Counted from the stretch's first letter, positions 8,348-60,889 are shown. The stretch is DNA of 64,000 bases from an uncultured Acidobacteriota bacterium (GCA_963814955.1 CAWFEX010000004.1:201486-265485), one strand, 5' to 3'. The notes: generated by a model from the letters alone, not told the origin. Made by a program: numbers and translations.

Positions 8348-8397
8348 CCGGAGACCTGAAGGTCTCCGGCTACCGTTTGGTCCGGCTGAAGCCGGAC
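8348..8397. repeat. two REP-like GC hairpins between convergent genes
   Basis: The first is CCGGAGACC-TGAA-GGTCTCCGG (8348-8369). The second is GTCCGGC-TGAA-GCCGGAC (8380-8397). The second recurs at 33481 and 60830. The first resembles the hairpin at 12842 and shares the trailing CTCCGGCTACC. Confidence 0.75.
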
Positions 8398-8398
8398 A

Positions 8399-10429
8399 CT
8401 ACGTACTGTGCTGCGGCGCGCGTTCGACCTGTACACGGGCGTCGTTGAAACACGCTCCGCCCCCGATGTCCGTCAGCGAATCGGGCACCAGCGCGTTCGT
8501 CGTGTGTCCATTGGCCGTGTGCTTGCGCCACAGCCCCTTCGGCAGCGACACCGTTCCAGGCCGAATCCAGGCGCCTACCGAAAGGTTGCAACGGACCTCG
8601 CCGAGTGCATTGAACATTCGAATGGCATCGCCATCCGAAAGCCCCCGAGCGGCCGCATCGTCGGGATGCATGAGAAGGCGGACCTCGGGCCTCGGCAGCT
8701 CGGCGAGGGTGGAGCTGATCGTTCGTTCGCTGGCCGGCGAAATCAGGGTGAGCGGAAATTCCGCCGTGCCTGGATCGGCCTGATAGCCGTACAGCCCCAG
8801 AGGCGCCTCGGCGTCGAGCGCCTCCGGGAAGAGGTCGACCTTGCGGTCCGGCGTCAATGGCCACACATCGCGGAACTGAACCGGCCGGCCGCCGTATGGA
8901 GGCGTTGCCGCGCCACGGTCGCTGAGCTCGCCTCCGATCGGCTGCGGCAATTGCGCCAGCACGGCGAGCATTTCCTCGAGCTCACCGCGCGGGTCATCGT
9001 CGTGGCGCAATTCGAGCCGTTCGAGAAGGTCTCCGAACACCTCCGCGTTCGATCGTGACTCGCCTGCTCCCTCCACGACTGGTTTCCCCAGACGAAGGCT
9101 GATCGGCCCGTAGCTGCGCGCGATCTCATAACCTTCCAGAAACGTGGTCGCCGGGAGCACCACGTCGGCGTACCGGGCAGTATCGGTCATGACCTGCTCG
9201 AAGACGACGGTGAACAAGTCGTCGCGTTCGAGATTGCGCAGGATCCGCCGCTGATCCGGGGTCGTCACGGCGGCGTTGCTGTTGTAGACGAAAAGCACCT
9301 TTATCGGAGGATTGCTGTCCTCGAGCGCTCGTCCAAGCCGATTCATGTTGATCGTGCGCGTGGGCGGCTCGTCGCTGCCGATCCACGTACGCGTGATTCC
9401 CCACGATGCCGAGTTGCTCATCGTGTATCCGCCGCCGCGCACGCCGAATTTGCCGGCGACGGCGGGAAGCGCGAGGATGGCCAGCGATGCACTGCCGCCA
9501 TTGCGATTGCGCTCCTGTCCCCATCCGCATCGGATAATCGCCGGACTTGTAGTGGCATATGTTTCCGCAGCCGCTCGGAGAGCAGCGGAATCGACGCCCG
9601 CTTCAGCGGCTGCGCGCTCGAAGGTCCACGGCTGCGCGCGCTCGCGAAGCCGCTCGGCCCCGCGCGCGTTCGCTGCGAGAAAGGCGGTGTCCGCGTAACC
9701 CTCTTCGAACAGGTAGCGGTGGATAGCCAGCGCGACCGGAAGGTCCGTACCCGGACGAACGGCAAGGTGAATGTCGGCCCGCTTGGCGAGGGGCGTCGTG
9801 CGCGGATCGACGACGATCAGTCGCGCGCCGCGGCGCTGTGCTTCGCGGATGTACGGCACGAGATGGATGCCGGACGCTGACGGATTGGCGCCCCAGATGA
9901 CGATGACCTTCGCCTCGGGGAAATCCTCGTAAGCGACCGACGGCATCTTGCCGTAGAGCGCCATGTTTGCCGCACCAGTCGGCGCTGCGCACACGGTGCG
10001 CGCCAGACGCGACGCGCCAAGGCGGCGAAACAACGTAGCGTCACTCGTGTCCTGCGTCAGCAGGCCATTCGAGCCGCCGTACGAATAGGGAAGGATCGAC
10101 TCGCCACCCCAGTTGTTGCGCGCTTCCCTGATGCGATCGGCAGCAACGGCCAGCGCTTCATCCCACGATACGCGCTTGAAGCTGCCGGCACCCTTGGGCC
10201 CCTTCCGCACCGCCGGATACAGCAAGCGGTCGGGCCCGTACTGCCGTTCCCCGAATCGGCGCACCTTCGCGCAAATGTAGCCATCGGTGACCGGATTTTC
10301 GCGGGATCCGTCGATTGCGGTAATACGGCCGTCCTCGACGGTGACCTCCAGACTGCACGAGTCGGGGCAGTCGAGCGGGCACACGGTGGTGACGGTGTGA
10401 TCTGTTGTGGCCGCGGTTACAGTTTTCAT
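8399..10429 (-). CDS. molybdopterin (bis-MGD) oxidoreductase family protein
   Basis: ORF 8399..10507. The likely start is MKTVTAATTDHTVTTVCPLDCPDSCSLEV at 10429, which carries an N-terminal CX3CX3C Fe-S motif. The rest has COG0243-type molybdopterin and C-terminal beta-barrel regions. Confidence 0.8.
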   Translation of the reverse strand: MKTVTAATTDHTVTTVCPLDCPDSCSLEVTVEDGRITAIDGSRENPVTDGYICAKVRRFGERQYGPDRLLYPAVRKGPKGAGSFKRVSWDEALAVAADRIREARNNWGGESILPYSYGGSNGLLTQDTSDATLFRRLGASRLARTVCAAPTGAANMALYGKMPSVAYEDFPEAKVIVIWGANPSASGIHLVPYIREAQRRGARLIVVDPRTTPLAKRADIHLAVRPGTDLPVALAIHRYLFEEGYADTAFLAANARGAERLRERAQPWTFERAAAEAGVDSAALRAAAETYATTSPAIIRCGWGQERNRNGGSASLAILALPAVAGKFGVRGGGYTMSNSASWGITRTWIGSDEPPTRTINMNRLGRALEDSNPPIKVLFVYNSNAAVTTPDQRRILRNLERDDLFTVVFEQVMTDTARYADVVLPATTFLEGYEIARSYGPISLRLGKPVVEGAGESRSNAEVFGDLLERLELRHDDDPRGELEEMLAVLAQLPQPIGGELSDRGAATPPYGGRPVQFRDVWPLTPDRKVDLFPEALDAEAPLGLYGYQADPGTAEFPLTLISPASERTISSTLAELPRPEVRLLMHPDDAAARGLSDGDAIRMFNALGEVRCNLSVGAWIRPGTVSLPKGLWRKHTANGHTTNALVPDSLTDIGGGACFNDARVQVERAPQHST

Positions 10430-11814: not shown

Positions 11815-12065
11815 CGTTCGAATCGTCCGGCCATTTGGGCCCGGAGCTTGCTCACGCCACTGGACGCATCCCAGCGGCTGGTTGGTTTCGCTGAAATCGC
11901 CGGTCAGAATCGAGCCGCTGCGAGGGGCGCGGCTCTCACTTTTGTGACTCGATAACAATTGTGTCGCCGGATGATGGCTTCGGCGTCTGGCTCTCATAGG
12001 AGCGGGTTTGGAAGACTCTGAAAGGCCGGCCGATTCGGCTCTTTTTCAAGCTTCTTGGAATCCTG

Positions 12066-12803
12066 ATGCTGGTGGCTGCCGTAGTCGGTGCGGTCACGAT
12101 TGTCAGGGCGCTGCCGCGCAACGCCGAGTACGACTGGTTCAGGGAAGCATACGGCCCGTCGCGGAATTCCCAGTATGCCGAGGAATGGCTGATTCGCGAC
12201 TTCTTTCGCGACGAGCGCAACGGGGTCTTCGTGGACGTTGGCTCGCACGAGTACAAGCGCTTCAACAACACCTACTATCTCGAGCAGGCACTCGGATGGT
12301 CGGGTCTGGCAATTGATGCTCAACAAGAATTCGCGGGCGATTACGCACGGTACCGGCCGCGGACGCGCTTTTTCTCCTTTTTCGTGAGCGACAAGTCGGA
12401 CGCCGTCGCGTCACTCTTTGTCCCGGATCAACACACCCTCGTGGCATCTTCGAACAAGGAGTTCTCCGATCGCTACGATACGTCGGGCAAGGAGCGCAAA
12501 GTTCGCACCATCACACTGAATGATCTTCTAGCGCGCGCCGGTGTCACCTCGATCGACTTCCTGTCGATGGATATCGAGCTGGCCGAGCCTCGCGCACTTG
12601 CGGGATTCGACCTCGTGCGGTATCGACCGCGCCTCGTTGGTGTCGAGGCACATCCGGAGATTCGTCAACAGTTGATCGACTACTTCACGCAACGAGAGTA
12701 CCGGGTCGTCGCGCGGTATCTGAGAGCCGATCCGTACAATTTGTGGTTTGCGCCTGCCGACGCAACGTTTCCCGAGGGCGTTCAAGTCGCCGACATGCAC
12801 TGA
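12066..12803 (+). CDS. FkbM-family methyltransferase
   Basis: FVDVGSHEYKRFNNTYYLE...ITLNDLLARAGVTSIDFLSMDIELAEPRALAGF matches the FkbM-family pattern. The start is uncertain because the frame stays open from 12000. Confidence 0.7.
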   Translation: MLVAAVVGAVTIVRALPRNAEYDWFREAYGPSRNSQYAEEWLIRDFFRDERNGVFVDVGSHEYKRFNNTYYLEQALGWSGLAIDAQQEFAGDYARYRPRTRFFSFFVSDKSDAVASLFVPDQHTLVASSNKEFSDRYDTSGKERKVRTITLNDLLARAGVTSIDFLSMDIELAEPRALAGFDLVRYRPRLVGVEAHPEIRQQLIDYFTQREYRVVARYLRADPYNLWFAPADATFPEGVQVADMH

Positions 12804-12824
12804 GGCGATTTTCAGATCGGTCCC

Positions 12825-12866
12825 ACGGAGGCCTAAAGGCACGGAGGCCTAAAGGCCTCCGGCTAC
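12825..12866. repeat. REP-like hairpin with a 16-nt tandem duplication
   Basis: ACGGAGGCCTAAAGGC occurs twice in tandem (12825-12840 and 12841-12856). The hairpin is CGGAGGCC-TAAA-GGCCTCCG (12842-12861), followed by GCTACC. It lies between convergent genes. Confidence 0.7.
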
Positions 12867-12880
12867 CAGAAGTTCCGGCG

Positions 12881-14824
12881 CTACGGCAGGCTCAGCGCGA
12901 TGTACTCGGCCGCGTGTTCTCGCGATCCAACCGCGAGCACGATGTATTGTTTGCCGTTGAAGAGATAGGTCATCGGAGCGCCGGTCGTCCCTGCCGGCAG
13001 GTCCATCTCCCACACGACGCGCCCCGACGACTTGTCGAACGCGCGGAATTTGCGGTCTCCCGCGCCAGGCGCGAGTGAAAGCGGCATGCTCGCCGGAATG
13101 CGCCGGGGATCGCCCGACATGATTGGATCGCCTTCGCCGACGAACAGCAGCGACCTCGTCAGCAGCGGCGCGCTTCGACCCGGGTTGCCGAGCGGAGGCA
13201 GGTTCAGCGGTTTGAGCAGCGGATGGTTTCGCGGTCCGTCGCCGTTGGTCACCGCCCACACGATTTCTCCCTTGTTCAGGTCGATCGCCGTAATCCTGCC
13301 GTAGGGCGGCTTCAGCAACGGCAGGCCCATTGGCGCGGGCGGATACTCGCGTGTGCCGCGCGTGTAGGTGAGATTCGTCTCCTTGGGATTGCCAGGAATG
13401 ACGTCGGCGACGAACGGCGCGGTAATGGATGGCACATACAGTCGTCCTGTCTCGGGATCGAACGCCGCTCCCTGCCAGTCGGCGCCGCCAACGGAGCCGG
13501 GAAGCTGAATCGTGCCCTTCGTATCGTTCGGTCCGCTGCCTTTGATCGAAGGCGGCGTGAACACAGGTCCGATCACATATCTCTTGACGATGTCGAGCGC
13601 CGCAGCCCGCAGCTCAGGCGTGAAATCAATCAGATCGTCGAGGTTGACCCCCTGCCGATCAAAGGCCGGCGGCTTGCTTGGAAACGGCTGCGTAGGTGAC
13701 GTCTGTTCCCCAGGTGTCGTCGACTGTGGGACGGGACGCTCTTCGATCGGCCAGACCGGCCGCCCGTTGACGCGATCGAACACGAATGCAAATGCCTGCT
13801 TCGTGACCTGCACGACAGCCTGGATCGGGCGGCCATCAACGGTGATGTTGGCCAACACGGGCGCGGCCGGCAAATCGTAGTCCCACAAATCGTGATGCGT
13901 GAGCTGGTAGTGCCACACGCGCGCGCCCGTCAGGCAGTCCACGCACACGAGGCTGTCGCTGAACAAGTTGTCCCCAAGCCGGTGGCCGCCGTACATGTCA
14001 CTCGTGGGGCTCGTCAGTGGGAGGTACGCGTATCCGAGCTGCTCATCCACGCTCACCAGCGACCAGAGATTGGTGTGGCCGGTGTACTGCCACGAATTGT
14101 CTTTCCACGTCTCGACGCCGAACTCGCCCGCGCGTGGAATGACGTGGAACGTCCAGCGCAGCCTTCCGGTCCGCACGTCATATGCCCTGACGTCACCTGG
14201 TGTCCCTTCCCGGTTGGGTGGTGAGTCGCTCATCGACGTTCCGACGATGACAACGTCGCGGCACACCCGCGGCGCTCCAGTCCATCCGTAGGGCTCCTTG
14301 CCGAGTCGGAGGTTGACGCTGCCGTTGTCGCCGAAGTCTTTGAATGGCTGGCCGGTTCTCAGATCGAGAGCGGTAAGCGTTTCGCCACGCTGCACGAACA
14401 ACCGCTGCTCGTTGCCGCTTCGCCAATACCCGAGTCCGCGCGTGCTGTCGCCTGGCAACCCCGCCGCTCCTCCCGCGGGCTGCTGCACCCAGCGCGTCTT
14501 TCCACTGGCGGGGTCGAATGCCTCGACCAGGCCGACACCGTTCGGACTGTACAGGACGCCGTCAATCATCAAGGGGGTCGCGCGGAAGTTGTTCGAGAAC
14601 GTGAGCTTCGGGTTGAGCGTCATGAGCTGCGGATCGACTGCCGGCCTGCGCCAGGCGACCCTCAGGCGTGCGACGTTCGACGCATTGATCTGATCGAGCG
14701 CGGCATATTTCGTACTGCCGGGATCACTGCTGTAGCTGCGCCATTCCGTGTTCTGGGCGGACACGATGACGGCGGTGGCGGCAATAAGGGCACAGGTACC
14801 GAACCAGCTGGCTGCTCGATGCAT
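12881..14824 (-). CDS. PQQ-dependent (quinoprotein) dehydrogenase, secreted
   Basis: Signal peptide MHRAASWFGTCALIAATAVIVSAQ. WRSYSSDPGSTKYAALDQINASNVARLRVAWR is a typical quinoprotein N-terminus. Beta-propeller W-rich repeats run throughout. Confidence 0.8.
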   Translation of the reverse strand: MHRAASWFGTCALIAATAVIVSAQNTEWRSYSSDPGSTKYAALDQINASNVARLRVAWRRPAVDPQLMTLNPKLTFSNNFRATPLMIDGVLYSPNGVGLVEAFDPASGKTRWVQQPAGGAAGLPGDSTRGLGYWRSGNEQRLFVQRGETLTALDLRTGQPFKDFGDNGSVNLRLGKEPYGWTGAPRVCRDVVIVGTSMSDSPPNREGTPGDVRAYDVRTGRLRWTFHVIPRAGEFGVETWKDNSWQYTGHTNLWSLVSVDEQLGYAYLPLTSPTSDMYGGHRLGDNLFSDSLVCVDCLTGARVWHYQLTHHDLWDYDLPAAPVLANITVDGRPIQAVVQVTKQAFAFVFDRVNGRPVWPIEERPVPQSTTPGEQTSPTQPFPSKPPAFDRQGVNLDDLIDFTPELRAAALDIVKRYVIGPVFTPPSIKGSGPNDTKGTIQLPGSVGGADWQGAAFDPETGRLYVPSITAPFVADVIPGNPKETNLTYTRGTREYPPAPMGLPLLKPPYGRITAIDLNKGEIVWAVTNGDGPRNHPLLKPLNLPPLGNPGRSAPLLTRSLLFVGEGDPIMSGDPRRIPASMPLSLAPGAGDRKFRAFDKSSGRVVWEMDLPAGTTGAPMTYLFNGKQYIVLAVGSREHAAEYIALSLP

Positions 14825-14880
14825 GATGCCTCCTGCGGCGGAGCCGTCAGGATACTCCAGGCCGAACGAGCGGAACGGCT

Positions 14881-16180
14881 CTAAGTTCGCCGCTGGTAGT
14901 GGGTGGCCACGTAGTTCTCCAGGAGCACGCGGAAGCCGTGCGCGAGCTCGTCGTACGTGCCGCGGAGCGTCGTGAAGTGTTCGCCGTCGACGTAGACCGG
15001 ACAGTTGGGCGCCTCGCCCGTGCCTGGCAGGCTGATCCCGATATTGGCAGCTTTGGACTCACCGGGGCCGTTGACGACGCAGCCCATGACAGCAAGGGTC
15101 AGTGTCTCGACGCCCTCGGTACTGCGATTTCCATTCCGGCATCCGCGTGCGGATGTACTCCTGCGTACGTTCGGCCAGCTCCTGGAAAGTGGTACTCGTG
15201 GTGCGTCCACAACCCGGACATGCGGTTACGCTGGGCGAAAAGGCACGCAGGCCGAGTGCCTGCAGCAGCTCGCACGCGGCGTAGACCTCCTCGCGACGGT
15301 CGCCTCCCGGGCGTGGCGTCAACGACACGCGAATGGTGTCGCCGATGCCTTCGTTCAGCAGAATGCCCATCGCCGACGCTGACCACATGAGGCCCTTCGT
15401 TCCCATTCCGGCTTCGGTGAGACCGAGGTGCAGCGGCTGATCGGTTCTCCGTGCCAGCTCTCTGTAGATGGCAATGAGATCCCGCGGGCGCGACACCTTG
15501 CACGAGATGACGATTTGATCCTTCCGCATGCCGGTTTCGAGCGCGAGCGTAGTGGACTCGATCGCCGAAATCAGCATGCATTCGTTCAGAACCTCCTCCG
15601 AGCTGTGACCCAGATTGCGATCGGTGTTCTCCTGCATCTTGTCGAGCACGAGCTCCTGATTGAGCGAGCCGCCGTTGACGCCGATGCGCACCGGTTTGTC
15701 GTGGTCGATCGCCACCTTGCAGATAGTCGAAAAACGCTCGTCACGCCGTGCCCCCGTCCCGACGTTGCCCGGGTTGATGCGGTATTTGTCGAGCGCCGCC
15801 GCGCAGTCCGGGTTCCGGCTCAGGAGCAGATGACCGTTGTAATGGAAGTCGCCGATGAGCGGCGCATTGCATCCCGCGTCGACCATGCGCCGCTTGATCG
15901 CCGGGACTGCGGCCGCGGCTTCCTGGGTGTTGACGGTGACGCGAACCAGCTCCGATCCCGCTTCCGCCAGTTCGATGCACTGGCGCGCGGTCCCTTCGAC
16001 ATCCGCGGTCTCTGTCATCGTCATCGACTGCACGGCAATTGGCGCACCGCCGCCTATCTGCATGTGGCCGACGCGGACGCCTACGGTCTTGTGCAGCCTG
16101 ACGGCACTCGAACTCGAGCCGCTCATTCCACCAATCATACGGGATAGCCGATGGGGACCAGCGGCTAGAATCTCACTCAT
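14881..16180 (-). CDS. ispG: HMBPP synthase IspG/GcpE; frame broken near 15113-15118
   Basis: ORF 15059..16180 carries the IspG body ([31 protein letters not shown]). The conserved C-terminus [31 protein letters not shown] is in ORF 14881..15210, in another frame. Confidence 0.9.
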
Positions 16181-16412
16181 GTCGGACGTGACACGAAAGA
16201 CGCTGGCGTGCGGTTGTCAGGTGGATGCCGCGCGCGACTTCCTCGGACGCGTGGTCGGCACGGTCGTCACCAAGGGTCCGACGTGTTCGCAGACCGTTGC
16301 ACGTTCCGGGGCATGTCATTGTGATGCCCGGACGCGAACACGCACGAGAGGAATAGTCACCCGGACTTCGCTGCGGCGGGGCGGCGCGCCTGCGCCACCG
16401 CGTGCACGATGA
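16179..16412 (+). CDS. candidate small Cys-rich protein (end uncertain)
   Basis: ATG at 16179, back-to-back with the ispG start. The product is [49 protein letters not shown]... with high third-position GC over about 50 codons. The Arg-rich tail overlaps the sortase 3' end and may be out of frame. Confidence 0.25.
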   Translation: MSDVTRKTLACGCQVDAARDFLGRVVGTVVTKGPTCSQTVARSGACHCDARTRTRTRGIVTRTSLRRGGAPAPPRAR

Positions 16413-17052
16413 ACCGCTTCGGTGCCGACCCGATGTAGGTGAACGGATAGCACGTCACCAGCGTGAGGGTAGACTTTCGCGTGGGTTTGAGTACCCACGT
16501 GTCCTTCGGTGACACCACACTCGTGGTGTCCACTTTGAACACGAATGTTCCCGCTGTCGTGACGACGCGGATGTCGTCTGCGGCGCGGATATCGCGCAGC
16601 CGTCGGAAGAACGTGTCACGATGCCCGGCCAGTCCGATGTTGCCAATCTCGCCTGGAAGGGCCGTGCCAGGGATATGACCGACTGCCAGCCGAAGCGTGC
16701 GAGCGTCACTGCCGGCGCGAATGATGGCCGAGACACCGAGCCTGGGGATTTCGATTCGGCCGAGAGCGGAACCCGGAGATGGCCGGACCGGCTTGATCGC
16801 GGCTGTCGTCGCGGCCGGCGGAGTCGCGGCCGGCGGAACGCTCGCGAGTATCAAATCGAGCTCGCGGTTTTCGATCGCCTGATACAACCTGGCTTCCACG
16901 GACACATACGCGAAGTAGCCAAGGCAGATCAGTCCGACGACAATGAGGATGCGCTCCAGCCATTTCAGACGGCGCGTTTTATTTGACCGCCGCCGGGAGC
17001 GTTGCGGCTCGTCGTTATCTGGAACCCGGGTGATGATGCGTCCTATAGCCAT
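16357..17052 (-). CDS. sortase-family transpeptidase
   Basis: N-terminal TM helix ILIVVGLICLGYFAYV. The catalytic region is LAGHRDTFFRRLRDI...TLTLVTCYPF (TLxTC motif), with a conserved Arg downstream (KRFIVHAV). The start is 17052 or 17091. Confidence 0.8.
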   Translation of the reverse strand: MAIGRIITRVPDNDEPQRSRRRSNKTRRLKWLERILIVVGLICLGYFAYVSVEARLYQAIENRELDLILASVPPAATPPAATTAAIKPVRPSPGSALGRIEIPRLGVSAIIRAGSDARTLRLAVGHIPGTALPGEIGNIGLAGHRDTFFRRLRDIRAADDIRVVTTAGTFVFKVDTTSVVSPKDTWVLKPTRKSTLTLVTCYPFTYIGSAPKRFIVHAVAQARRPAAAKSG

Positions 17053-17938
17053 CGCGACTCCGAACGCGCAAGTTCTTTTGGCCGGGAACACGCACGCCTA
17101 CTTTCACACGACGATACGTTCCATCGTGTGCGGTGTTGGTTGGAATGTACCCAATCAGGTAGCCGCGACGGATATTTGCCGCAATCCGGTCGAAGCTTTC
17201 GACAACCTCATCGTCTCCGTCTGGAAAGTACGCGACTCCGCCCGCGACATTGGCCAGCTTGCGGAGTACTCCCGCGTCGCCAGGGAGCCCGTACCGGCGG
17301 TTTGCCGTGGAAACTGTGTACACGATGGCGTTGCTGTCGCGCGCGTGGGCGATCATCTCCTCTTCCGTGTGCGTGCTCGCGTTGTCCTCGCCATCCGAAA
17401 GCACGACGAGAACCCGTTTCTGATGAGTCGCGAACTCGAGGTGATCGAGCCCCGCCATCACCGCATCGTACAGGGCGGTCTTGCCGCCCGGTCCGAAGCG
17501 CGCCAGCGCCGAGCTCAATAGTATTTGACGGTTCGTGAACGGCATGCCTGCCGGTAGTCCGAATTGGGCGCGCTCGTTGAAATGAATCGTGAACAGCTCG
17601 TCTTCGGTATGGCTGGATCGCGCAAACGCCTTGCTGCCTGCAATGACCATGTGTTGGCGCGCGATCATCGAGCTGCTGTTGTCGAGAATGAGACCAACCG
17701 TCACGGGCACATCAGCGCCGCTGAAAAACGTAATCTCCTGCCCTTCGTCGTTTTCCAGCACGGTGAACGCACTTTGCGGCAGATCCGGAACGGCATCAGA
17801 TCGGCCGTCGAACACATTTACGTGGAGGACCACCAGATCAGACTCGGATCTGAAGACCTGCAGCGGCTCCTGCACGGCAATGAGCGGTGCGCAGAACATC
17901 GCCCACAGCAGAAGATCACGCGCCAGATGCCGCACCAT
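17015..17938 (-). CDS. secreted VWA-domain protein (acidobacterial VWFA-related type)
   Basis: Signal-like start MVRHLARDLLLWAMFCAPLIAVQ at 17938. FRSESDLVVLHVNVFDGRSDAVPDLPQSAFTVLENDEGQEITFF matches my recollection of the VWFA-related acidobacterial domain. A MIDAS-like ILDNSSSM motif is present. Confidence 0.75.
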   Translation of the reverse strand: MVRHLARDLLLWAMFCAPLIAVQEPLQVFRSESDLVVLHVNVFDGRSDAVPDLPQSAFTVLENDEGQEITFFSGADVPVTVGLILDNSSSMIARQHMVIAGSKAFARSSHTEDELFTIHFNERAQFGLPAGMPFTNRQILLSSALARFGPGGKTALYDAVMAGLDHLEFATHQKRVLVVLSDGEDNASTHTEEEMIAHARDSNAIVYTVSTANRRYGLPGDAGVLRKLANVAGGVAYFPDGDDEVVESFDRIAANIRRGYLIGYIPTNTAHDGTYRRVKVGVRVPGQKNLRVRSRDGYRTHHHPGSR

Positions 17939-20300: not shown

Positions 20301-20359
20301 TCGGGGATTGTGGTGCCTGAGGAGGGAATCGAACCCACACGCCGGGTGACCGGCGGGAG
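20301..20359 (-). repeat. tRNA-Leu 3'-half fragment (att-like direct repeat)
   Basis: TGGTGCCTGAGGAGGGAATCGAACCCACACGCCGGGTGACCGGCGGGAGATTTTGAGTC is identical to 24421-24479. The two sequences diverge at the next base, and no 5' half of a tRNA follows. Confidence 0.9.
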
Positions 20360-20680
20360 ATTTTGAGTCCCACTCCACGCCGAAACGACCGATCGCGGCG
20401 ATGCACAAAAACCGGACGAATCACGGAAGGGCGAACTCGGCGCGGCCTTTCAAGCGCACGCGTTAGTCGGCGACAAGCTGCGCGCCTGGCGTGCGGAAAA
20501 TGCACGCGAGTCGGTCGAAGCCAGGCGCGACAGCATCTTGCGAAGGCACACGTTGCGCACGATGAACACCCGCGACAACGTGCTGGCTGCGGCGCGCTTA
20601 TTCAACCTTGAACAATTACTTACCCGCGCGGTAGTAAAGGCCGCGCTTCAAACAGAAGAAACAGAAAGGTAGGAAACAAG

Positions 20681-20842
20681 ATGGGTGTGCCACGTTCACA
20701 CGAGGATGCTGCCAAGAAAAACAGGGGCGGCCAACGATCGCTCGCGAAGTGCACCAACAGAAGCGCAAGGCCGCGTTAAAGGATCCAGGCGCCGATCGCA
20801 GCAAGGAAAATGTTGACAAGGCCAAGCGCGGCGAGTGGAAGT
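20681..20842 (+). CDS. candidate small basic protein (frame broken in an A5 run at 20720-20724)
   Basis: MGVPRSHEDAAKK then shifts frame to ...KQGRPTIAREVHQQKRKAALKDPGADRSKENVDKAKRGEWK*. One extra A in the run would give a 54-aa ORF. Confidence 0.3.
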
Positions 20843-21028
20843 GACATCGGAAGTGAGGGGCAAGCCATCACTTTTGGATTCGGTTCGGGCCCCTCAGCGC
20901 GTGGTGGTTACGCGTCGTTTCAACCGAACCGGATCCCTTTTTTAGGCTGTCCGCTAATTTGAGTACAGCGGTTGTGCTGACGATGCCGTTGCGGTACATT
21001 CGGGTCCCCCAACCGGGAGGCATGTCAC

Positions 21029-21752
21029 GTGGCAATCACCGTCACCGTGAAGGGCGCGATCCCGCAGCGACGGCCGCTCTACATCGCGTTGAGCGCGCTC
21101 ATGGCGCTGATCGTTGCTGTGGGGTTCTGGCCGACGTATTACGGGCCGCTTGTTCGCCTGACGCTCGCACAACCGCCGCTCATCCACGTTCACGCGATCG
21201 TGTTCACTGGATGGCTGGCGCTGTTCTCGGCGCAAGCGGTGTTCGCGGCGAATGGCCGACTCCGATGGCATCTGCGACTCGGCCGTATCGGCATCGCCTA
21301 TGGCGTGCTACTCGTCATCGTGGGACTGACAACGGGAGTCTTGCGATCAGCAGCGCTGCCGCGTGGAGGGCAGGCCGAAGAGCTGCTGTATGTTGCCTTC
21401 GTCGACATGCTGGTGTTCGCGAGCTTCTTCGGTGCGGCCATCCGGTTCCGGCGGCGACCCGACGTGCACAAGAAACTAATGACCGTCGCCGCGACCACGC
21501 TGCTGGTGGCCGCGGTGGGCCGGAATCCGTATCTGCCGGCACTCCCGCGGTCTTGCAGCCATGTTTCTCGTTTGGTCGTCGCCGGTGCTGCTGGCTGCCG
21601 TGTACGACTGGCGACACAATCGCGGTGTGCATCCGGTGTATGTCGCCGGTCTTGTGGCGTTTGCATTTCGCATGTGGAGCGAGCCGCTCGCGCTGACGTC
21701 CACGTGGAGCGCGTTCGCAACGTTCGTGTTTCGCAGTGCGTCGTCGCTGTAG
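21029..21752 (+). CDS. integral membrane protein, hypothetical; frame broken near 21544-21551
   Basis: ORF 21029..21916 reads sensibly for about 170 aa (six hydrophobic helices, HVHAIVFTGWLALFSAQAVF) and then turns Arg-rich. The sensible C-terminus MFLVWSSPVLLAAVYDWRHNRGVHPVYVAGLVAFAF... is ORF 21561..21752. Confidence 0.6.
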
Positions 21753-22429
21753 TGGGCCCGCGGATCCCGCTGATCGACCCCGTCCATCAAGCCGTGTTGC
21801 GCACACAAGGGCAAGCCAAACTGCTGCAGCCATGGCCGCATGTTGCGGCCAGGCCGCGCGGGCCAGCTGGGGCGTCCCGAGGGGACCTGGTCGACGATTC
21901 CGGTCGCCAATCCTGAGGGACGATTGTTTCCCTCCGGCGCGGATCCGACCAGCGCCATTCGACTCGGGTGCCGCGAATGCGCAAATGCAGGCTCGCTCAT
22001 GGCGAGCCATAGACACGCCCGACAGTCGTCAGTCACGTCCCGACTCGCCGTTAGTTCGTCGGGAACGGGAACGAGTCCTGCCGGGCGCGCCATTCCAACG
22101 TTTTGGGCGCGCCACCCCGCTCCGCTTTGGTATCTGTTCGTTTTCGGATGGATGAAAACCGTCGGCTTGTTGCGCAAACTCCGCCACCGCGGGAAGCGCG
22201 GGGAGCTCCCTCTGGTCGCGTACCTGCCCCCGTGCAGTTGTCGAACCCCGGCAGGAACCATGCGAGCGCCGGATAACCGGCCTGCCAGGCGAGCTAGAGT
22301 GCGATAAGGTCGCGGACGCCGCGAGACAGACGCGACGGATGGTGAACGAGGGGGTGTTCACCGTAGCGGCCGGCGAGAATCACACGGCCGCCAACCGGAT
22401 GTCAAACGGATTACCATTCATCCAACCGC

Positions 22430-24037
22430 ATGGCTCAAGCCGTCCACAGCAGGGGCGCCATCTCCGTCACGGCGGAATTCCTTAGCACTCTTCGAGGCTT
22501 CCTTCGAACCCCGATCGGGCCGGACGAGTGTCGCGACCGGCTTCGAGCGGGGCTCGCCCAACGCGAAGCCGCCGTGCTTCGGTTGTTTCGCGAGCTGATG
22601 ATCGCCGAGTCACCCATGCCGTACCGGAGGCTCTTCGACCATGCCGGCCTCACGATGGGCGACCTCGACGCACTCGTGCGCGCCGAGGGCGCGTGCGGCG
22701 CGCTCGTGCGCATACACGAGGCCGGCGTGTTCGTGACCCTCGACGAGTTCAAGGGGCGGCGTCCCATTCAGCGGGGTTCGCTCAGTCTGGCCGTCGAGGC
22801 GAGTGATTTCGACAACCGCACGGTGGTGTCCGGTTTCCTCGCCCGAACGGGCGGCTCGCGGAGCGCCGGCACGCCTCTCCTGATCGATCTAGACCTGGTA
22901 GCCCACGAAGCGTGCTACGAGTGGATGGCGGCCGCTGCGTTCGAGCGCGTAGGGGCGCTCCGTGCGCTCTGGCGGCCCGTCCCGCCAGGGACGGCTGGCC
23001 TCAAGCACGCGCTTCGCTTTGCCAAGATCGGCCAGCCGGTGGAGCGGTGGTTCTCGCAGCATCCCGTGTGGGCCGGCCGCGAGTGGCGACACTCCCTGTT
23101 CACGGCGGGAACGATGCTCGCAAGCCGCATCGCAGGCCGAGGTTTGGCGTGGCCCGAGCATGTGCCCGCGTCCGAAGCCACGACGATCGCTCGATGGATG
23201 GCCCAGCAGAAGGCGAGAGGGCGCCCGCCCGTCCTCCACACCAACGCAGCATCGGGCGTTCGCGTGTGCCAGGCCAGCCGCGCGGCAGGCCTGGACATCA
23301 GCGGATCGTTCTTCGGCGTGGGCGGAGAACCCTACACCGAGGCCAAGGCCGCCGCGATTGCCGACGCGGGCTGCCTGGCGGCCTCCATCTACTCGATGTC
23401 CGAAGTGGGCCGGATCGCGACACCTTGCGCGGATCCGGCGGCGCCAGACGACGCGCATGTGGCGATCGACAAGGTGGTGCTCGTGTCACGCGATACCCGC
23501 GTGGGAGGCGCGGCAACCCCCGTTCCCGCACTGTTCCTCACGGCGCTCCATCCGTCGACGCCGAAGGTCATGCTCAACGTTGAATTGGGTGACTATGCCA
23601 CGGTGACGAACCGGGTGTGCCGGTGCCCGTGGAGCGCGCTCGGATTCACGGTCCATGTGAGCGGGATCCGAAGTTATGAGAAGCTGACGGCCGAAGGCAT
23701 GCACTTCATCGGCGCCCATCTGTTGACGCTCATCGAACACACCCTGCCCGCGACGTTCGGCGGCAGCGCGGTCGACTATCAACTCGTCGAGGACGAACGC
23801 GCGGGCGTGCCGTTCGTGTCGCTCGTCGTGAGTCCCGGGATTGGCGATCTCGACGAGTCGCGACTGCGCGAGCACGTGTTGGCCGAGCTCGGGCGCGACG
23901 AGGCAGCTCTGCGGATGATGGCGGGCCGTTGGCGCGACGCGGGGACGCTCCGGGTCGAGCGGCGCGACCCGTTCCTGACCCCGGCTGGGAAGGTGCTGGC
24001 TCTGCATGTACAACAACGGGGGCGCCGCGATGCGTAA
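22430..24037 (+). CDS. PaaK/coenzyme-F390-synthetase-like adenylate-forming enzyme (divergent)
   Basis: The layout resembles phenylacetate-CoA ligase-type ANL enzymes. SPMPYRRLFDHAGLTMGDLDAL matches the N-terminal region. TGGSRSAGTP sits where the SSGTTGxP loop is expected. IYSMSEVG, ELGDYATV, CRCPW...VSGIRSYEKLTAEGMHF and a distal TPAGKVL are also present. Confidence 0.5.
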   Translation: MAQAVHSRGAISVTAEFLSTLRGFLRTPIGPDECRDRLRAGLAQREAAVLRLFRELMIAESPMPYRRLFDHAGLTMGDLDALVRAEGACGALVRIHEAGVFVTLDEFKGRRPIQRGSLSLAVEASDFDNRTVVSGFLARTGGSRSAGTPLLIDLDLVAHEACYEWMAAAAFERVGALRALWRPVPPGTAGLKHALRFAKIGQPVERWFSQHPVWAGREWRHSLFTAGTMLASRIAGRGLAWPEHVPASEATTIARWMAQQKARGRPPVLHTNAASGVRVCQASRAAGLDISGSFFGVGGEPYTEAKAAAIADAGCLAASIYSMSEVGRIATPCADPAAPDDAHVAIDKVVLVSRDTRVGGAATPVPALFLTALHPSTPKVMLNVELGDYATVTNRVCRCPWSALGFTVHVSGIRSYEKLTAEGMHFIGAHLLTLIEHTLPATFGGSAVDYQLVEDERAGVPFVSLVVSPGIGDLDESRLREHVLAELGRDEAALRMMAGRWRDAGTLRVERRDPFLTPAGKVLALHVQQRGRRDA

Positions 24038-24177
24038 TTTCCGGCTACGGCGTTCGGCTTCGGACGCGTGCCATCGACGGCCGCGATTGTCCGGACTGGC
24101 TGGGCCTTCCACCAGGTCGCTTGGCGGGCACGTGCGAAGCCTGTTGTTCGGAAAGCTGCTGTCTGACGTTTTAGTGA

Positions 24178-24399
24178 TCTGGAGAGCAGATTCCCCGGTT
24201 TCCCCGGGCCAATTGTGCAACCGTGACGGACTGAGGAACGGACACCAAGACACGGTCGGTGTTCGACCGCTATGACATCGTCAATCAATTGGAATTGCGA
24301 TCAGGTGTGACGAAGCTCGGCGCCACGATGGTTGAGGGGACAAAACAGGGACAATCGACCAATCAAGGCAAGGTGCGGCGGATCCGCACTGCGCGCTGA
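24178..24399 (+). pseudogene. remnant of a tyrosine recombinase (integrase) C-terminus
   Basis: Frame 1 reads SGEQIPRFPRANCATVTD*GTDTKTRSVFDRYDIVNQLELRSGVTKL...*. KTRSVFDRY(N/D)IV is the catalytic-Tyr end motif of many phage-type integrases. In-frame stops lie at 24172-24177 and 24232-24234, and no N-terminal part is present. Confidence 0.55.
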
Positions 24400-24420
24400 C
24401 TTTTACTTTCCTTAGGAATT

Positions 24421-24509
24421 TGGTGCCTGAGGAGGGAATCGAACCCACACGCCGGGTGACCGGCGGGAGATTTTGAGTCTCCTGCGTCTGCCAGTTCCGC
24501 CACTCAGGC
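24421..24509 (-). tRNA. tRNA-Leu (anticodon CAA), CCA encoded
   Basis: The reverse complement is GCCTGAGTGGCGGAACTGGCAGACGCAGGAGACTCAAAATCTCCCGCCGGTCACCCGGCGTGTGGGTTCGATTCCCTCCTCAGGCACCA. It has a 7-bp acceptor stem, anticodon loop CTCAAAA, a long variable arm and a GGTTCGATTCC T-loop. Confidence 0.92.
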
Positions 24510-24634
24510 CCGAAGTAAGCGATCCAATTCTATCAACGACTTACGCCGATTGTTGCACGGGCGTAATGCTTGCTTGGGTGCCTTTGTCCCCGCGTTTTGT
24601 CCCTGGCATCGATTTTCGCTCTGATCGCTCTGAA

Positions 24635-24907
24635 TCACAGGCCACATTCCAAAAAGCCGACCTGCAGCGATTCAGGCTTGATCCAGTAGGGTTTCGTGGC
24701 TCCACCCACTCCGCGCACTTGGACCCAGGCCCCGCTGATAGCCTCGACTTGGAACCGTTCTCCGGGACTCAATCCCCGAATAGTGCAAACCGGCTGTCCG
24801 ATTTTGAAGATCGGCGGCAAGTTACTTTCCTGGGCGGTCAATGGGAAAGTCGCTGCGGCAGAGTATCCAAGTAGCAATCCGACGCCGAGAACAAGCACTC
24901 TTGTCAT
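24635..24907 (-). CDS. small secreted protein, hypothetical
   Basis: The ATG is preceded by AAGGAGAAAC. Signal peptide MTRVLVLGVGLLLGYSAAA, followed by a short beta-rich body. Confidence 0.6.
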   Translation of the reverse strand: MTRVLVLGVGLLLGYSAAATFPLTAQESNLPPIFKIGQPVCTIRGLSPGERFQVEAISGAWVQVRGVGGATKPYWIKPESLQVGFLECGL

Positions 24908-25040
24908 GAGTTTCTCCTTATCCGGCCGCTTGCGAAATCACCGCCCATCGTAATATGTGCCGCTTCGGGAATCTCAGACATCGCCTTCAATGTGAGCCAC
25001 CGTTGATCCGTTCCAAGCTCTGCAGTAGGATCGGCATCCC

Positions 25041-25235
25041 ATGGTTCCCGCGATGGTGCCAGACGACGACCTCGTCCTGGTGCTCACCTGTCCAGAATGT
25101 GAGCACGCGCACTCCCGCATCTCCATGCGCAGTCAAACCATCCTGACGGTGAAGTGCCGCCAGTGTCAGCACTCTTGGTCCACCCTGATCGCCACGTTGC
25201 CAGAATCCGTCCTGAAGCAATTGCCCCCGCATTAG
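25041..25235 (+). CDS. zinc-ribbon small protein, hypothetical
   Basis: 64 aa with CPEC...CRQC (two CxxC pairs) and high third-position GC. Confidence 0.5.
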   Translation: MVPAMVPDDDLVLVLTCPECEHAHSRISMRSQTILTVKCRQCQHSWSTLIATLPESVLKQLPPH

Positions 25236-25688
25236 TGGTTAGTGGGTATTACCGTCGTGCTGGAAAGCGGATCCGTTGAACCCGAGCGAATGGGGTTGTA
25301 GAATTGCCGCCCCCCCGCCGGCCGATGGTCCCGACGGTGCACAACCGGAGGCCGTCGCCTGAAAGCTTCTCGTTAATTGCCCCGATACTTTGGTGACCGA
25401 CGCCCACGAGTTGCGACACTCGCTCCGTTCCGCAGGTGGGTCAGGTGTATGTGGCGGACGCGCGGCTTTCACGAAGTGGATTTGCATACTGGTCGCTGCC
25501 GCTACTGCAAACGGCCGTGGACGGTGGTGAATCTCCCGTTAAACGTCGCTTGAGCATGCGCAACTCGTAACCGCTCGTATTTCATTGGCGGTTTGCCCTC
25601 CAGTCACTCCGAGCTTTCGCTGTCCGTCGCATCGGCGCGGACGGCACGCTTCCACACAGGTCGGAGGTAGCCGTGATTTAATTCGCGC

Positions 25689-26090
25689 GTGATATTCCTT
25701 CAACAGACGCGCCACAAAGCTTCGAGCGTGACGCTCTTCTTGTTACTGGCATCATGTGCTCTCGCGCAGTCACAACGACCACAAGAACAACCCAGTCCCG
25801 GCGGCGCTGAGCAACCAGCCGCACCCGATCCACGCGGCACTGAAGGGTCGCCGCTCATCGTCAGGATTCAACCAACCCCGCAGACTGACGAGGAAGCCGC
25901 CAAAGAACAAGCACAAATAGAACAGCAGGAGTCGGCCCAACGGTGGACGAAAGGGTTGGGCATCGCGACCGGCATTCTCGGCGTGCTCCAACTCATTGCT
26001 ATCGGCTTTCAGGTTGGTATTCGATCGTGTCTTGATTCAGCCGACCGAAGCTGCCCTCAGTGGCTGAAGCCTTCTTCCGATTACACGTGA
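25689..26090 (+). CDS. hypothetical exported/membrane protein (3' end overlaps the HNH gene, possibly truncated)
   Basis: GTG start. A lipobox-like signal (LLLASCALAQ), a Pro/Gln/Glu-rich linker, then a hydrophobic helix (GLGIATGILGVLQLIAIGF). Confidence 0.35.
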   Translation: MIFLQQTRHKASSVTLFLLLASCALAQSQRPQEQPSPGGAEQPAAPDPRGTEGSPLIVRIQPTPQTDEEAAKEQAQIEQQESAQRWTKGLGIATGILGVLQLIAIGFQVGIRSCLDSADRSCPQWLKPSSDYT

Positions 26091-26406
26091 GGTAGCACGG
26101 GCGCCATCCGCTCTTGTCCCAAAAGATGCGTGCATTCCCCTTTGCTGCAATCGCGTGATCAATCGCTTCAGCCTCGACGCGCTCACCTCGACGTGAGCAG
26201 TAGAAACGAAATCGGTTCTCCGGCTTTGACAGAAACTCCGCGCGCTCCGTTTTCCATCGCGCGGATCCGTGAAGTTGCGAATAATTCCGACGCTGTTTCC
26301 GATCTCGTTCGTACTGGCGTTCATGCTCGGCACATCTCGAGGTTCGGCCTGTCGAGCGTCGTGAGCAGGGCCATACCGAACAGGGGCTAGTCGGCAAACT
26401 AGGCAT
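25999..26406 (-). CDS. HNH endonuclease, phage type, with degenerate metal-binding motifs
   Basis: ATG at 26406. MPSLPTSPCSVWPC...RCAEHERQYERDRKQRRN...RWKTERAEFL...AIDHAIA..ARIFWDKSGWRPCYLTCNRKKASATEGSFG parallels the phage HNH layout PC..C...C..H..., VDHI, FWD..NWQ.LC..CH..KT..E.GGFG. Here CxxC has become CSRRG and CHxxK has become CNRKK. Confidence 0.7.
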   Translation of the reverse strand: MPSLPTSPCSVWPCSRRSTGRTSRCAEHERQYERDRKQRRNYSQLHGSARWKTERAEFLSKPENRFRFYCSRRGERVEAEAIDHAIAAKGNARIFWDKSGWRPCYLTCNRKKASATEGSFGRLNQDTIEYQPESR

Positions 26407-26782
26407 AACCGCGCCCCGAAAGTGCTGGCGATGCCGCCGCGGGACCACGGGACGACGGCGCAGGGCTTGCTGCGTGCAGCTTAGAGCGTGCGATATGGCT
26501 GACGTCTTGCGCGTCAAGTTCAACCCCCGATGGGGTTGGAGCAAACACGAGGCACAGGAAACCGGCGAACCGCCGGACTCGCCTGATGTCGAACGCCCAC
26601 CCGATCAGGATCTTCCGGTCTCGGATGAAGAGCGGGGCGATATACCCAGTAGCCCAGACGCTCTCCCGTTTACAGGCGAAGACGTTGAGGACGTGGGTCC
26701 GCCCCGGAAGCGGGATCGCCCACCGCCTATGTGAGCCTTCAAATTCATTCTTCAGCGGACAGAGACAATCCGCCCACGTCAT
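26399..26782 (-). CDS. hypothetical protein upstream of and overlapping the HNH gene
   Basis: ATG at 26782 (MTWADCLCPLKNEFEGSHRRW...). Third-position GC is about three quarters by hand count, which favours this strand over the plus-strand ORF 26474..26734. The 8-nt overlap with the HNH start suggests translational coupling. Confidence 0.45.
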   Translation of the reverse strand: MTWADCLCPLKNEFEGSHRRWAIPLPGRTHVLNVFACKRESVWATGYIAPLFIRDRKILIGWAFDIRRVRRFAGFLCLVFAPTPSGVELDAQDVSHIARSKLHAASPAPSSRGPAAASPALSGRGYA

Positions 26783-26847
26783 CGCGAGCACACTCGAGCC
26801 GCGACCATAACGAGCAAGAAGATCGCGGTGCCAATCAGAAGTTCCAT
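26779..26847 (-). CDS. candidate 22-aa hydrophobic micropeptide
   Basis: GGGAG, then 4 nt, then ATG at 26847. The product is MELLIGTAIFLLVMVAARVCSR*. Its TGA overlaps the next ATG (ATGA). Confidence 0.2.
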   Translation of the reverse strand: MELLIGTAIFLLVMVAARVCSR

Positions 26848-26951
26848 CTCACTCCCATCGGCAAGTGGCCGGTTCTCTCGCTCGCCTCGTCCTCTGGCGT
26901 TAGACTATGACCCTCCCCGATCGGTTCTCGTTGCAGACACAAGAGGGAGAC

Positions 26952-27447
26952 ATGCGCAATACACTCGCTCTCGTCGTTGGTCTCGCGATACTGGTCGGCT
27001 GCCTTGCATTGGCTAACGCTCAGTCCAACGCCTCGCAGCTGGAGGGCGCGTGGGCCGTACAGGAGGTCACCGCTCCCAAACCGATCCAGCCGAATCCGCC
27101 GAAGAAGCCAACCGGTTTGGTTGTGTTTTCCGGACGGCACTACGCGCTTTCCGCGACCGACGTCACCCGTCCAGATTTCGCAGAGGGTGGTCCGCCGCAA
27201 GGCCACGGCCGACCAATTGCGCGCCACGTGGGGACCGGTACAGTCGGAGGCAGGAACGTTCACCGTCACGGGCAACACCATCCGGTTCACGAGAGTTGTA
27301 GCGAAGGGGCCTGCTGCGGTGGCGTCGGGAAACTTCGTTGAACGATCCTTCATGCTGAAGGGTGACACGCTCGTGGTAACCGATGTGCGGAACCAGAACG
27401 GACCTATCGAAAATCCCATAACGGTGCGGCTTACACGGGCGAAGTAG
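26952..27447 (+). CDS. lipocalin-like secreted protein; frame broken near 27192-27202
   Basis: RBS AAGAGGGAGA, then MRNTLALVVGLAILVGCLALANAQSNASQLEGAWAV...GLVVFSGRHYALSATDVTRPDFAEGG (ORF 26907..). It continues in ORF 26977..27447 as KATADQLRATWGPVQSEAGTFTVTGNTIRF...FMLKGDTLVV. Confidence 0.6.
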
Positions 27448-27811
27448 AGTCTCCGGAGGCGTGCGCACACATTTCATGGCTGACGCCGGTGCGTCGGCGT
27501 GAAATACGCGCTGGCTATCACTCCTCATGGCTGGCGCCTTAAGTCGGCCGGCGCGGTATTCGCCACGGCTCTTCTTATGTCGCGAGTTGAGATCGGCGGC
27601 GGGCGACTTCGTGCTGGGGCCTTTTTTTGCGACGACACTTCCGAGCCCCGGAATGCAGCTCGAGTCGAGGTCAGATCCCCGTAACCGCTGAAAGCGCAAC
27701 GAGTTCAGCGTCGTGATCGTCGCGCCAGGGGGCGCGGGACTACCGAGGCAACGGTCGCGCCATCTCCGGGCGCCGACGCCTGCGTCGGCGTAAATGGTTG
27801 CATCACGTCAC

Positions 27812-33450: not shown

Positions 33451-33480
33451 AATCCCTGGCTGACCTGACACGTTCGTAGT

Positions 33481-33498
33481 GTCCGGCTTCAGCCGGAC
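33481..33498. repeat. REP-like hairpin GTCCGGC-TTCA-GCCGGAC
   Basis: Reverse complement of the 8380-8397 element. The shared flank CGTAGTGTCCGGCTTCAGCCGGAC lies 31 nt after the DMT stop. Confidence 0.75.
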
Positions 33499-52960: not shown

Positions 52961-53027
52961 AATGGAAAAAACAGAGCAAGCGAGGTACCGGACGGCTCCC
53001 GTCGCGTTCTTCGCGCGTTGGAATGGC

Positions 53028-53931: not shown

Positions 53932-53954
53932 AAGTCAAAGGTCAAAAGTCAAAA
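53920..53954. repeat. heptamer microsatellite (GTCAAAR)x5
   Basis: GTCAAAG GTCAAAA GTCAAAG GTCAAAA GTCAAAA at 53920-53954, overlapping the CDF start region. A partly complementary TTTGCCTTTTGCCTTTTGC lies at 53971-53989. Confidence 0.85.
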
Positions 53955-53997
53955 GTAATCACCGCCCGGATTTGCCTTTTGCCTTTTGCACTTACGG

Positions 53998-55414: not shown

Positions 55415-55460
55415 CGGCCGATTCCCGGGTTGTCAGTCAGGGATACGGTGTCGCTGGTGG

Positions 55461-60807: not shown

Positions 60808-60829
60808 ATCGTCCGCTCTCGAACGTCGT

Positions 60830-60847
60830 GTCCGGCTTTAGCCGGAC
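60830..60847. repeat. REP-like hairpin GTCCGGC-TTTA-GCCGGAC
   Basis: Same stem as the hairpins at 8380 and 33481, preceded by the similar flank ACGTCGT. It lies 23 nt after the stop of methyltransferase paralog 1. Confidence 0.75.
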
Positions 60848-60889
60848 CAGAGCACCGTTTTCGGCACAAACGTTGCGCCGCCGACACAC

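Follow-up and report, generated by a model that had tools for sequence, protein, structure and literature searches.

In the tRNA-gene (tDNA) islands treated by Islander (Hudson, Lau & Williams; PMC4383910), the ends of an island are marked by the regenerated target and by a displaced fragment of it. The attachment (att) sites that mycobacteriophages use in tRNA genes are described as a common core of 30-45 bp, which takes in the tRNA's 3′ half and is flanked by pairs of arm-type sites (PMC10865867). A further class, the anticodon-loop att sites of Williams (2002), is presented in a later report (bioRxiv 10.1101/2020.11.02.365908) as having the symmetric anticodon stem around the presumed overlap region. 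Integration upstream of a tRNA gene is a recognised exception (PMC4383910; bioRxiv 10.1101/2020.11.02.365908), and the arg2 islands of Klebsiella pneumoniae, which integrate upstream of their tRNA gene, depart from the downstream rule in this way (bioRxiv 10.1101/2020.11.02.365908). Here, we compare with these systems a locus in a 64-kb stretch of DNA from an uncultured Acidobacteriota bacterium (GCA_963814955.1, CAWFEX010000004.1:201486-265485), hereafter the window, to whose full length all coordinates refer. The locus consists of a tRNA-Leu(CAA) gene, a 4.1-kb islet on its 3′ side (islet 1, 20311-24420) and a truncated element on its 5′ side (element 2). The comparison indicates that a small phage-like integrative element very probably entered tRNA-Leu(CAA) by means of a lambda-type tyrosine integrase and that islet 1 is its inert remnant. 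Taken alone, it is an ordinary find, what remains of a prophage or island beside a tRNA gene; the two-sided setting is unusual. The islet lies in a poorly studied soil lineage, the Vicinamibacterales, and the best-named relatives are metagenome-assembled genomes (MAGs) of this order of Acidobacteriota.

A tRNA-Leu(CAA) gene and a displaced copy of its 3′ part bound islet 1

Sequence reading, a repeat finder and blastn of the tRNA against the window all gave the same 59-nucleotide (nt) direct repeat, identical at 59/59 positions, at 20311-20369 and 24421-24479. An earlier note on this DNA, made from the sequence alone, had the exact 59-nt copies and the position of the right one, but it placed the left copy at 20301-20359 and the spacing at 4120 nt, where we measured 4110 nt from start to start. 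The repeat is far above chance (blastn-short, E = 2e-29) and is the only long repeat family that the repeat finder returned within 18-27 kb. Its identity ends as sharply at base 60 as the note had stated (c at 20370 versus t at 24480); on the other side, beyond the tRNA 3′ end, 4/6 further bases agree (GGATTG versus GGAATT).

ARAGORN found one tRNA in the 64 kb, the intact tRNA-Leu(CAA) on the minus strand at 24421-24509, which Rfam backed (RF00005, 50.4 bits) and which the note had read correctly. Its anticodon loop has 7 nt, CUCAAAA, and its CCA is encoded. Numbered along the tRNA, the repeat spans nt 31-89: it begins with the last 2 nt of the anticodon stem's 5′ strand, takes in the loop and runs on through CCA. 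The distal copy, also on the minus strand, has the orientation of the tRNA and lies downstream of it, 4.1 kb from the tRNA 3′ end. The complete gene thus stands at one end, as an attL-type junction, and a 3′ fragment in direct orientation stands downstream of it at the other end, as an attR-type core, which is the arrangement of the Islander islands (PMC4383910). A second, divergent tRNA gene at the left copy, raised in the earlier note as a finding that would count against its reading, was ruled out, since both ARAGORN and Rfam were blank there at E <= 1. The distal copy is a displaced, non-functional tRNA 3′ fragment. In a conspecific contig (L002) it carries six changes (53/59) and the tRNA is unchanged, the pattern expected of a displaced fragment that has no function.

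The second line of evidence is a piece of integrase gene beside the tRNA, on the plus strand. A reading frame that ends in ...TKTRSVFDRYDIVNQLELRSGVTKLGATMVEGTKQGQSTNQGKVRRIRTAR stops at 24399 (stop codon 24397-24399), 21 nt short of the tRNA 3′ end, and converges on the tRNA. The conceptual translation of 24147-24399 matched 12 proteins in a search of a 5.8-billion-protein set, among them proteins labelled integrase or bearing PF00589 (P0126, P0128 and P0130). Only the last ~53 codons (24240-24399) could be aligned with these homologs, and the upstream extension at 24147-24239, before the residues GH, was dropped. The catalytic-Tyr motif GHKTRSVFDRYDIVN and the tail GTKQGQS occur both in the remnant and in its homologs, and the alignment indicates that the C-terminal box with its His, Arg and catalytic Tyr is retained and that the remaining catalytic domain is gone. 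One extra C is present at 24245/24246, and dropping it restores GHKTRSVFDRY. A full-length integrase from another contig (L014) matched the remnant by tblastn (E = 2e-4), and tblastn of the remnant against plasmids gave no match. The decayed integrase C-terminus described in the earlier note is therefore real PF00589-type homology, and its sequence is the same in all conspecific contigs, so a sequencing artefact is unlikely. About 15% persists of a gene of roughly 360-390 codons. As in the Islander islands, integrase DNA adjoins the tRNA and the composition is atypical; unlike them, islet 1 is 4.1 kb long, below the usual island sizes, and the integrase gene inside it is reduced to these ~53 frameshifted C-terminal codons (PMC4383910). 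For this reason we class islet 1 as a remnant and not as an island with a working integrase.

The same arrangement was observed across the integrase family. Full-length members bearing PF00589 were found in phage-like IMG/VR contigs, and wherever a family contig has a tRNA, the tRNA directly follows the integrase gene; in two of them (L017, L018) integrase and tRNA are again convergent. One contig (L015) holds a complete integrated element of ~9.4 kb, with PrimPol/D5 helicase, TerL, portal and integrase genes followed by tRNA-Lys. A 46-nt repeat of the 3′ part of tRNA-Lys brackets this element and also reaches 2 nt into the anticodon stem on the 5′ strand. A parallel remnant of 5.1 kb (L011), from a different organism in the same sample as the conspecific contig L001, combines a 179-amino-acid (aa) integrase fragment with tRNA-Leu(TAA) and a capsid gene; the 63-nt repeat that brackets it likewise extends to the anticodon stem-loop. 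In islet 1, too, the block of identity ends at the anticodon stem-loop, with the same geometry as in the intact relatives, which is the likeness to the anticodon-loop att class. The differences are that the crossover position in islet 1 is deduced from the repeat ends, that the host is an uncultured member of the Vicinamibacterales and that the integrase clade is uncharacterised. With an integrase remnant at the tRNA, the same layout in both relatives and no tRNA at the distal copy, the attL/attR interpretation proposed in the earlier note stands, and the ancestor of islet 1 was probably a phage-like element of ~9-10 kb of the type complete in L015.

A repeat of this kind could also have arisen with no integrase, by partial duplication of the tRNA through slippage, illegitimate recombination or an assembly error, the likeness to integrases being coincidental. 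Partial tRNA fragments are common in prokaryotic genomes according to one report (PMC9897764). Against this stand the precise end of the repeat at the anticodon stem-loop, which complete elements of this integrase family show too, the integrase remnant in the expected place and orientation, and the structure itself, which four independent contigs spanning the islet reproduce and whose tRNA-proximal end is covered by two more short contigs. We consider an origin of the repeat by such duplication to be very improbable, and it is disfavoured.

A short motif next to the core fits the same picture. Two tandem copies of GGGACAA, with starts 11 nt apart, lie inside the integrase tail at 24337-24354 on the plus strand. 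A pair stands at the same place in L011, L014, L015, L025, L026 and element 2; throughout the family two copies, 11-13 nt from start to start, lie between the catalytic Tyr of the integrase and the core. Further copies occur on the other arm, ~120 nt past the core, in L015, L026 and element 2 of L001. These motifs are putative arm-type integrase-binding sites; in L015, L026 and element 2 of L001, where both arms carry them, they flank the core as pairs do in the mycobacteriophage att sites (PMC10865867). Because the pair sits in the last integrase codons and encodes the conserved tail GTKQGQS/GTKRGDK, the conservation of this peptide may reflect binding sites at the DNA level. The layout of islet 1 as a whole agrees with the published descriptions of att sites in tRNA genes (PMC10865867, PMC4383910).

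These data suggest the following course. A phage att site (attP) carrying a duplicate of tRNA-Leu(CAA) that ran from the anticodon loop to CCA would have recombined with the chromosomal tRNA gene, with strand exchange inside the anticodon loop. The tRNA would have been rebuilt beside the integrase gene (24421-24509), its 3′ part now derived from the element, and the original 3′ fragment would have been pushed to the far end (20311-20369). Later decay would have spared nothing but the ~53 frameshifted integrase codons, the putative arm-type sites next to them and both copies of the core. The gap between these is now taken up by three host-type single-gene modules, one for a small basic protein, one for a membrane protein and one for a PaaK-fold protein, a predicted adenylating enzyme that stands alone.

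Strain comparison is consistent with a fixed state. The 535-aa protein of the islet is encoded identically on three other ENA contigs (L001-L003), which are 98.6-99.5% identical to the window, and islet 1 is carried by 4/4 conspecific contigs that span the site; the two short JGI contigs (L012, L013) hold only the tRNA-proximal end of the islet. With ~15% of the integrase gene left in addition, the description as a fixed, eroded remnant in the earlier note was borne out. A different left context in L002 was dismissed as a low-complexity assembly artefact at the contig end (1-352; poly-A/T and (CA)n).

In the streptococcal literature on integrative and conjugative elements (ICEs), cis-mobilisable elements (CIMEs) are att-flanked elements that lack recombination and transfer genes. 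Islet 1 resembles them in being flanked by two att-type cores, in having no working integrase and in having decayed from an autonomous element; it differs in that its parent was phage-like and not an ICE, and in showing no sign of mobilisation or of accretion with a functional element on the same side. Having lost its integrase, islet 1 cannot move by itself. It might nevertheless still be mobile in the manner of a CIME, its att cores being excised or mobilised in trans, or by accretion, through a related integrase of another element in the cell. The cores are identical at 59/59 positions in three strains, the GGGACAA pair on the integrase side is intact, and the community commonly harbours related integrases, L011 and L001 coming from one sample. 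On the other hand, no strain and no read-derived contig was found without the islet or with a circular junction, the distal arm has no exact arm-type motif and the distal core is decaying in L002, and no gene for an excisionase (recombination directionality factor) is visible. We therefore regard continued mobility as improbable and prefer to see in islet 1 an inert remnant.

Genes and composition of the islet interior

The three genes that the earlier note had listed in the interior, a small basic open reading frame (ORF), a membrane protein and a PaaK-like enzyme, were all present, each on the plus strand. The small ORF (20681-20844) is frameshifted in the window by a 1-nt deletion; L002 has an extra A after 20744, and its intact frame of 54 aa reads MGVPCSHEDAAKKNRGGQRSLDEVHQQKRKAALKDPGADRSKENVDKAKRGEWK, which had no Pfam match. 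A hairpin followed by a T-run can be read from the sequence at ~20884-20945. The membrane-protein module (20939-21757) contains a coding sequence (CDS) at 21029-21752, of 241 aa if intact. It is intact in L003, and the window, where the frame shifts at ~21541-21548, L001 and L002 differ by indels at 21538-21548. Homologs number more than 550, and Pfam gave no domain for the family. Two copies, at 93% (L022) and 83% (L023) nucleotide identity, have nothing but 20939-21757 in common with the window; they begin and end abruptly and sit in unrelated contexts, and L031 provides a third context. The ratio of nonsynonymous to synonymous substitution rates (dN/dS) against L022 was 0.29.

Between the membrane gene and the next CDS, 21753-22429 is gene-free, which agrees with the ~680 nt without convincing coding signal reported in the earlier note. 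Within it, the 432 nt that belong to neither module (21758-22189) hold only overlapping ORFs in several frames, with no convincing gene or known RNA; this stretch had no Rfam match at E <= 1 and no similarity to related elements by blastn.

The largest module (22190-24062) comprises a conserved upstream region of 240 nt and a CDS at 22430-24037 that encodes the protein of 535 aa. Its label as PaaK-like, given in the earlier note, holds at the level of the fold. The AlphaFold2 model (predicted local distance difference test score 88, predicted template modelling score 0.89) gave PaaK1 (2y27) as the top Foldseek hit at E = 3e-16, with PaaK1, PaaK2 and BT_0428 at E ~1e-16 to 1e-13, and a profile search matched the phenylacetate-CoA ligase PaaK 9s3l (E = 0.002). 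The predicted structure has the two-domain ANL fold with a phosphate-binding loop and a C-terminal catalytic Lys; it fits PaaK (2y27/2y4n) over both domains and keeps the glycine-rich loop TGGSRS and K521. There are 837 strong homologs, and G142, S143, R144 and K521 are invariant. It differs from these PaaK structures in having only 14-18% identity and ~100 more residues and in giving no Pfam match; NCBIfam gave none either. Elsewhere, the gene heads a conserved cluster in which a NitT/TauT-type ABC transporter (a binding protein, two permeases and an ABC ATPase) is joined by a polysaccharide flippase and a methyltransferase (for example L004 8001-15036 and L007 5691-12942). In the window none of these partners was found and the gene is solo, so that it differs from the PaaK family also in its detachment from the usual operon. 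The comparison thus flags a widespread family of PaaK-fold enzymes with no Pfam domain and with a conserved transporter/flippase/methyltransferase operon. One contig (L010) has a copy at 96% nucleotide identity that shares only 22190-24062, with abrupt borders; dN/dS against it was 0.52. Judged from these two ratios, the PaaK-like and membrane genes are under constraint, the former loosely.

When composition was profiled, as the earlier note had proposed, the GC content over five segments of the islet was 58.7, 64.1, 65.2, 67.9 and 57.5%, compared with 62.4% for the window. The tetranucleotide z-score was 2.1-2.5 over 21.5-24.0 kb, and the peak of deviation spanned 21.5-26.5 kb. Two other regions of the window, 4001-8500 and 53001-55500, reached a tetranucleotide z of ~2-2.5 relative to the window, comparable to the tRNA locus.

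The interior genes may have arrived later than the element itself: inserted into a dying prophage, either illegitimately or driven by recombination, they would have replaced its backbone and truncated the integrase gene. The PaaK-like and membrane modules, with their copies at 96% and 93% and abrupt borders in unrelated contexts, point to this, as does the end of the L010 homology at 24062, upstream of the start of the integrase remnant at ~24240. The GC content of the PaaK-like module (67.9%) also departs from that of the integrase end (57.5%), and the homologs of this gene usually lie within a chromosomal operon. However, phage-like elements often bear cargo of single genes (morons), the contexts in L010 and L022 could themselves be the secondary sites, and neither target duplications nor insertion-sequence ends were seen at the module borders. 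On balance we give later arrival a little less than an even chance. Whichever way they came, the interior genes look like a mosaic of host-type single-gene modules that are also found in other contexts, and the 93-96% copies with abrupt borders (L022, L010; also L023, L031) suggest frequent relocation of single genes in this lineage.

Several results weigh against the view of islet 1 as the remnant of a phage-like element. Family scans found no phage-like gene in its interior, and the proteins of its genes had no matches in Pfam, NCBIfam or PHROGs; this lack of mobile-element genes also distinguishes it from the Islander islands (PMC4383910). Comparison of the interior with related phage-like elements gave nothing by tblastn and only the integrase end by blastn; a scattered, non-collinear likeness in tblastx, run with no low-complexity filter, was disregarded as GC-rich noise. 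The exact GGGACAA motif is absent from the distal arm, where only 1-mismatch variants occur, at 20470 and 20572. The frameshifts of the membrane gene and the small ORF vary by assembly, and the contig names look like those of long-read assemblies, so these frameshifts could be real or could be assembly errors. Finally, the relatives searched, among GTDB species genomes and in metagenome scans, yielded no empty site for islet 1, a further difference from the Islander islands. A GTDB scan with the adjacent 406-aa flank protein returned only L008, which is truncated and non-syntenic, and L009, at 49% identity; JGI metagenome contigs, scanned twice with exact patterns for the empty site, gave 0 matches, and an exact-protein look-up of the flank gene gave the L001 contig only. 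Within 3878-5166 of L008, another Vicinamibacterales MAG, the homolog of the flank gene is cut after ~234 codons, and ~500 nt beyond it lies a different tRNA, tRNA-Leu(CAG), whose relative orientation is the same.

A second element on the 5′ side of the tRNA

Contig comparison revealed that the DNA on the 5′ side of the tRNA, 24514-27725, which the earlier note had passed over, is variable among strains. In L001 a full insert of 5.7 kb (12085-17809) lies upstream of the tRNA 5′ end and is flanked by exact 45-nt repeats (12040-12084 and 17810-17854). The empty site is uninterrupted in L002, L003 and L012, and both junctions align perfectly. The core, tRNA nt -4 to 41 (24469-24513, minus strand, in the window), is duplicated in L001 and single in the empty sites. 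The 5′ fragment of the tRNA is thus repeated upstream with a precise empty site. Compared with L001, the window has a 3.65-kb deletion at 27725/27726, with a 3-nt microhomology (CAG; L001 15297-18951 are missing), which took the distal end of the insert, the displaced tRNA 5′ half that was its distal att copy and, from the native DNA further upstream, ~1.1 kb that hold the greater part of a gene for which L003 has an annotation of 323 aa. What is left in the window, on the minus strand, is the truncated element 2, and the tRNA is its tRNA-side junction as well as that of islet 1.

The content of element 2 relates it to the same integrases. Its tRNA-proximal 100 nt are ~80% identical to the 3′ end of the L014 integrase gene and the spacer that follows, and nucleotide alignment places an integrase 3′-end remnant at 24544-24672 on the minus strand, with a GGGACAA pair, found by motif scan, at 24584-24603 on the same strand. 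An HNH endonuclease gene (25999-26544, minus strand; PHROG HNH match, 2e-13) and a primase/helicase fragment (PHROG match, 4e-18) are also present. In L001, GGGACAA motifs of element 2 were located at 17676-17694 on the minus strand.

Complete and free relatives in phage-like IMG/VR contigs have the same orientation. L014 (5420-6629) encodes a full-length integrase of the family directly upstream of, and co-oriented with, tRNA-Leu(CAA), and L025 (102-143 and 10726-10813) is a complete element of 10.6 kb that has a 42-nt repeat of the tRNA-Leu 5′ half on either side. L026 is a non-integrated relative with an integrase gene at 6648-7673 and no full tRNA; within its attP, at 7773-7811, lie 39 nt of the tRNA-Leu 5′ half, starting about 100 nt after the integrase gene. 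These three integrases form a sister clade that inserts upstream of the tRNA and co-oriented with it, whereas their closest relatives use the 3′ side. Like the arg2 islands of K. pneumoniae (bioRxiv 10.1101/2020.11.02.365908), element 2 lies on the 5′ side with a direct repeat of the 5′ portion of the gene; unlike them, its repeat extends to the anticodon loop (nt -4 to 41) and not to the D-loop, its integrase is sister to a 3′-side clade, and the same tRNA also has a 3′-side remnant.

The 59-nt and 45-nt repeats overlap at tRNA nt 31-41, the anticodon loop with 2 bp on each side, so that crossover in both clades appears to fall in one symmetric site, approached from opposite sides. Scans for sigma-70 promoters around the tRNA found none in the occupied or the empty site; by eye, a candidate extended -10-like motif, TGATAGAAT, may be recognised upstream of the tRNA in element 2 and in L014. 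The evidence leans towards a tRNA-Leu(CAA) gene that consists entirely of mobile-element DNA, with nt 31-89 from the ancestor of islet 1 and nt -4 to 41 together with the upstream promoter region from element 2. Expression of this tRNA in the window strain would then depend wholly on phage-derived sequence, and one integrase family, with a clade that integrates in 'reverse polarity', would use the symmetric anticodon stem-loop in both orientations. The origin of the two tRNA halves from elements follows plausibly from the geometry of integration, as identical repeats cannot by themselves prove which copy is which.

Together with its relatives, the locus has some value as a clean natural series for one uncharacterised integrase family, with complete elements, a free attP, remnants and empty sites, in which sister clades use one and the same anticodon-loop core for entry into tRNA genes, coming from opposite sides. 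The series makes it possible to test how site orientation evolves in tyrosine integrases and whether elements supply promoters to tRNA genes, and to test such integrases as orthogonal integration tools for Acidobacteria.

Other features of the window

The flank of islet 1 carries a gene block encoding GcpE, a sortase, a VWA protein and the 406-aa protein. A short motif containing a hairpin, …TCCGGCTGAAGCCGGACACTACGTACT…, occurs three times in the window (8377-8407, 33471-33489 and 60820-60865), where the chance expectation for matches is 0. The same motif occurs twice in a different MAG (L008 5289-5332 and 10617-10644), and may be an intergenic repeat similar to the repetitive extragenic palindromic (REP) type.

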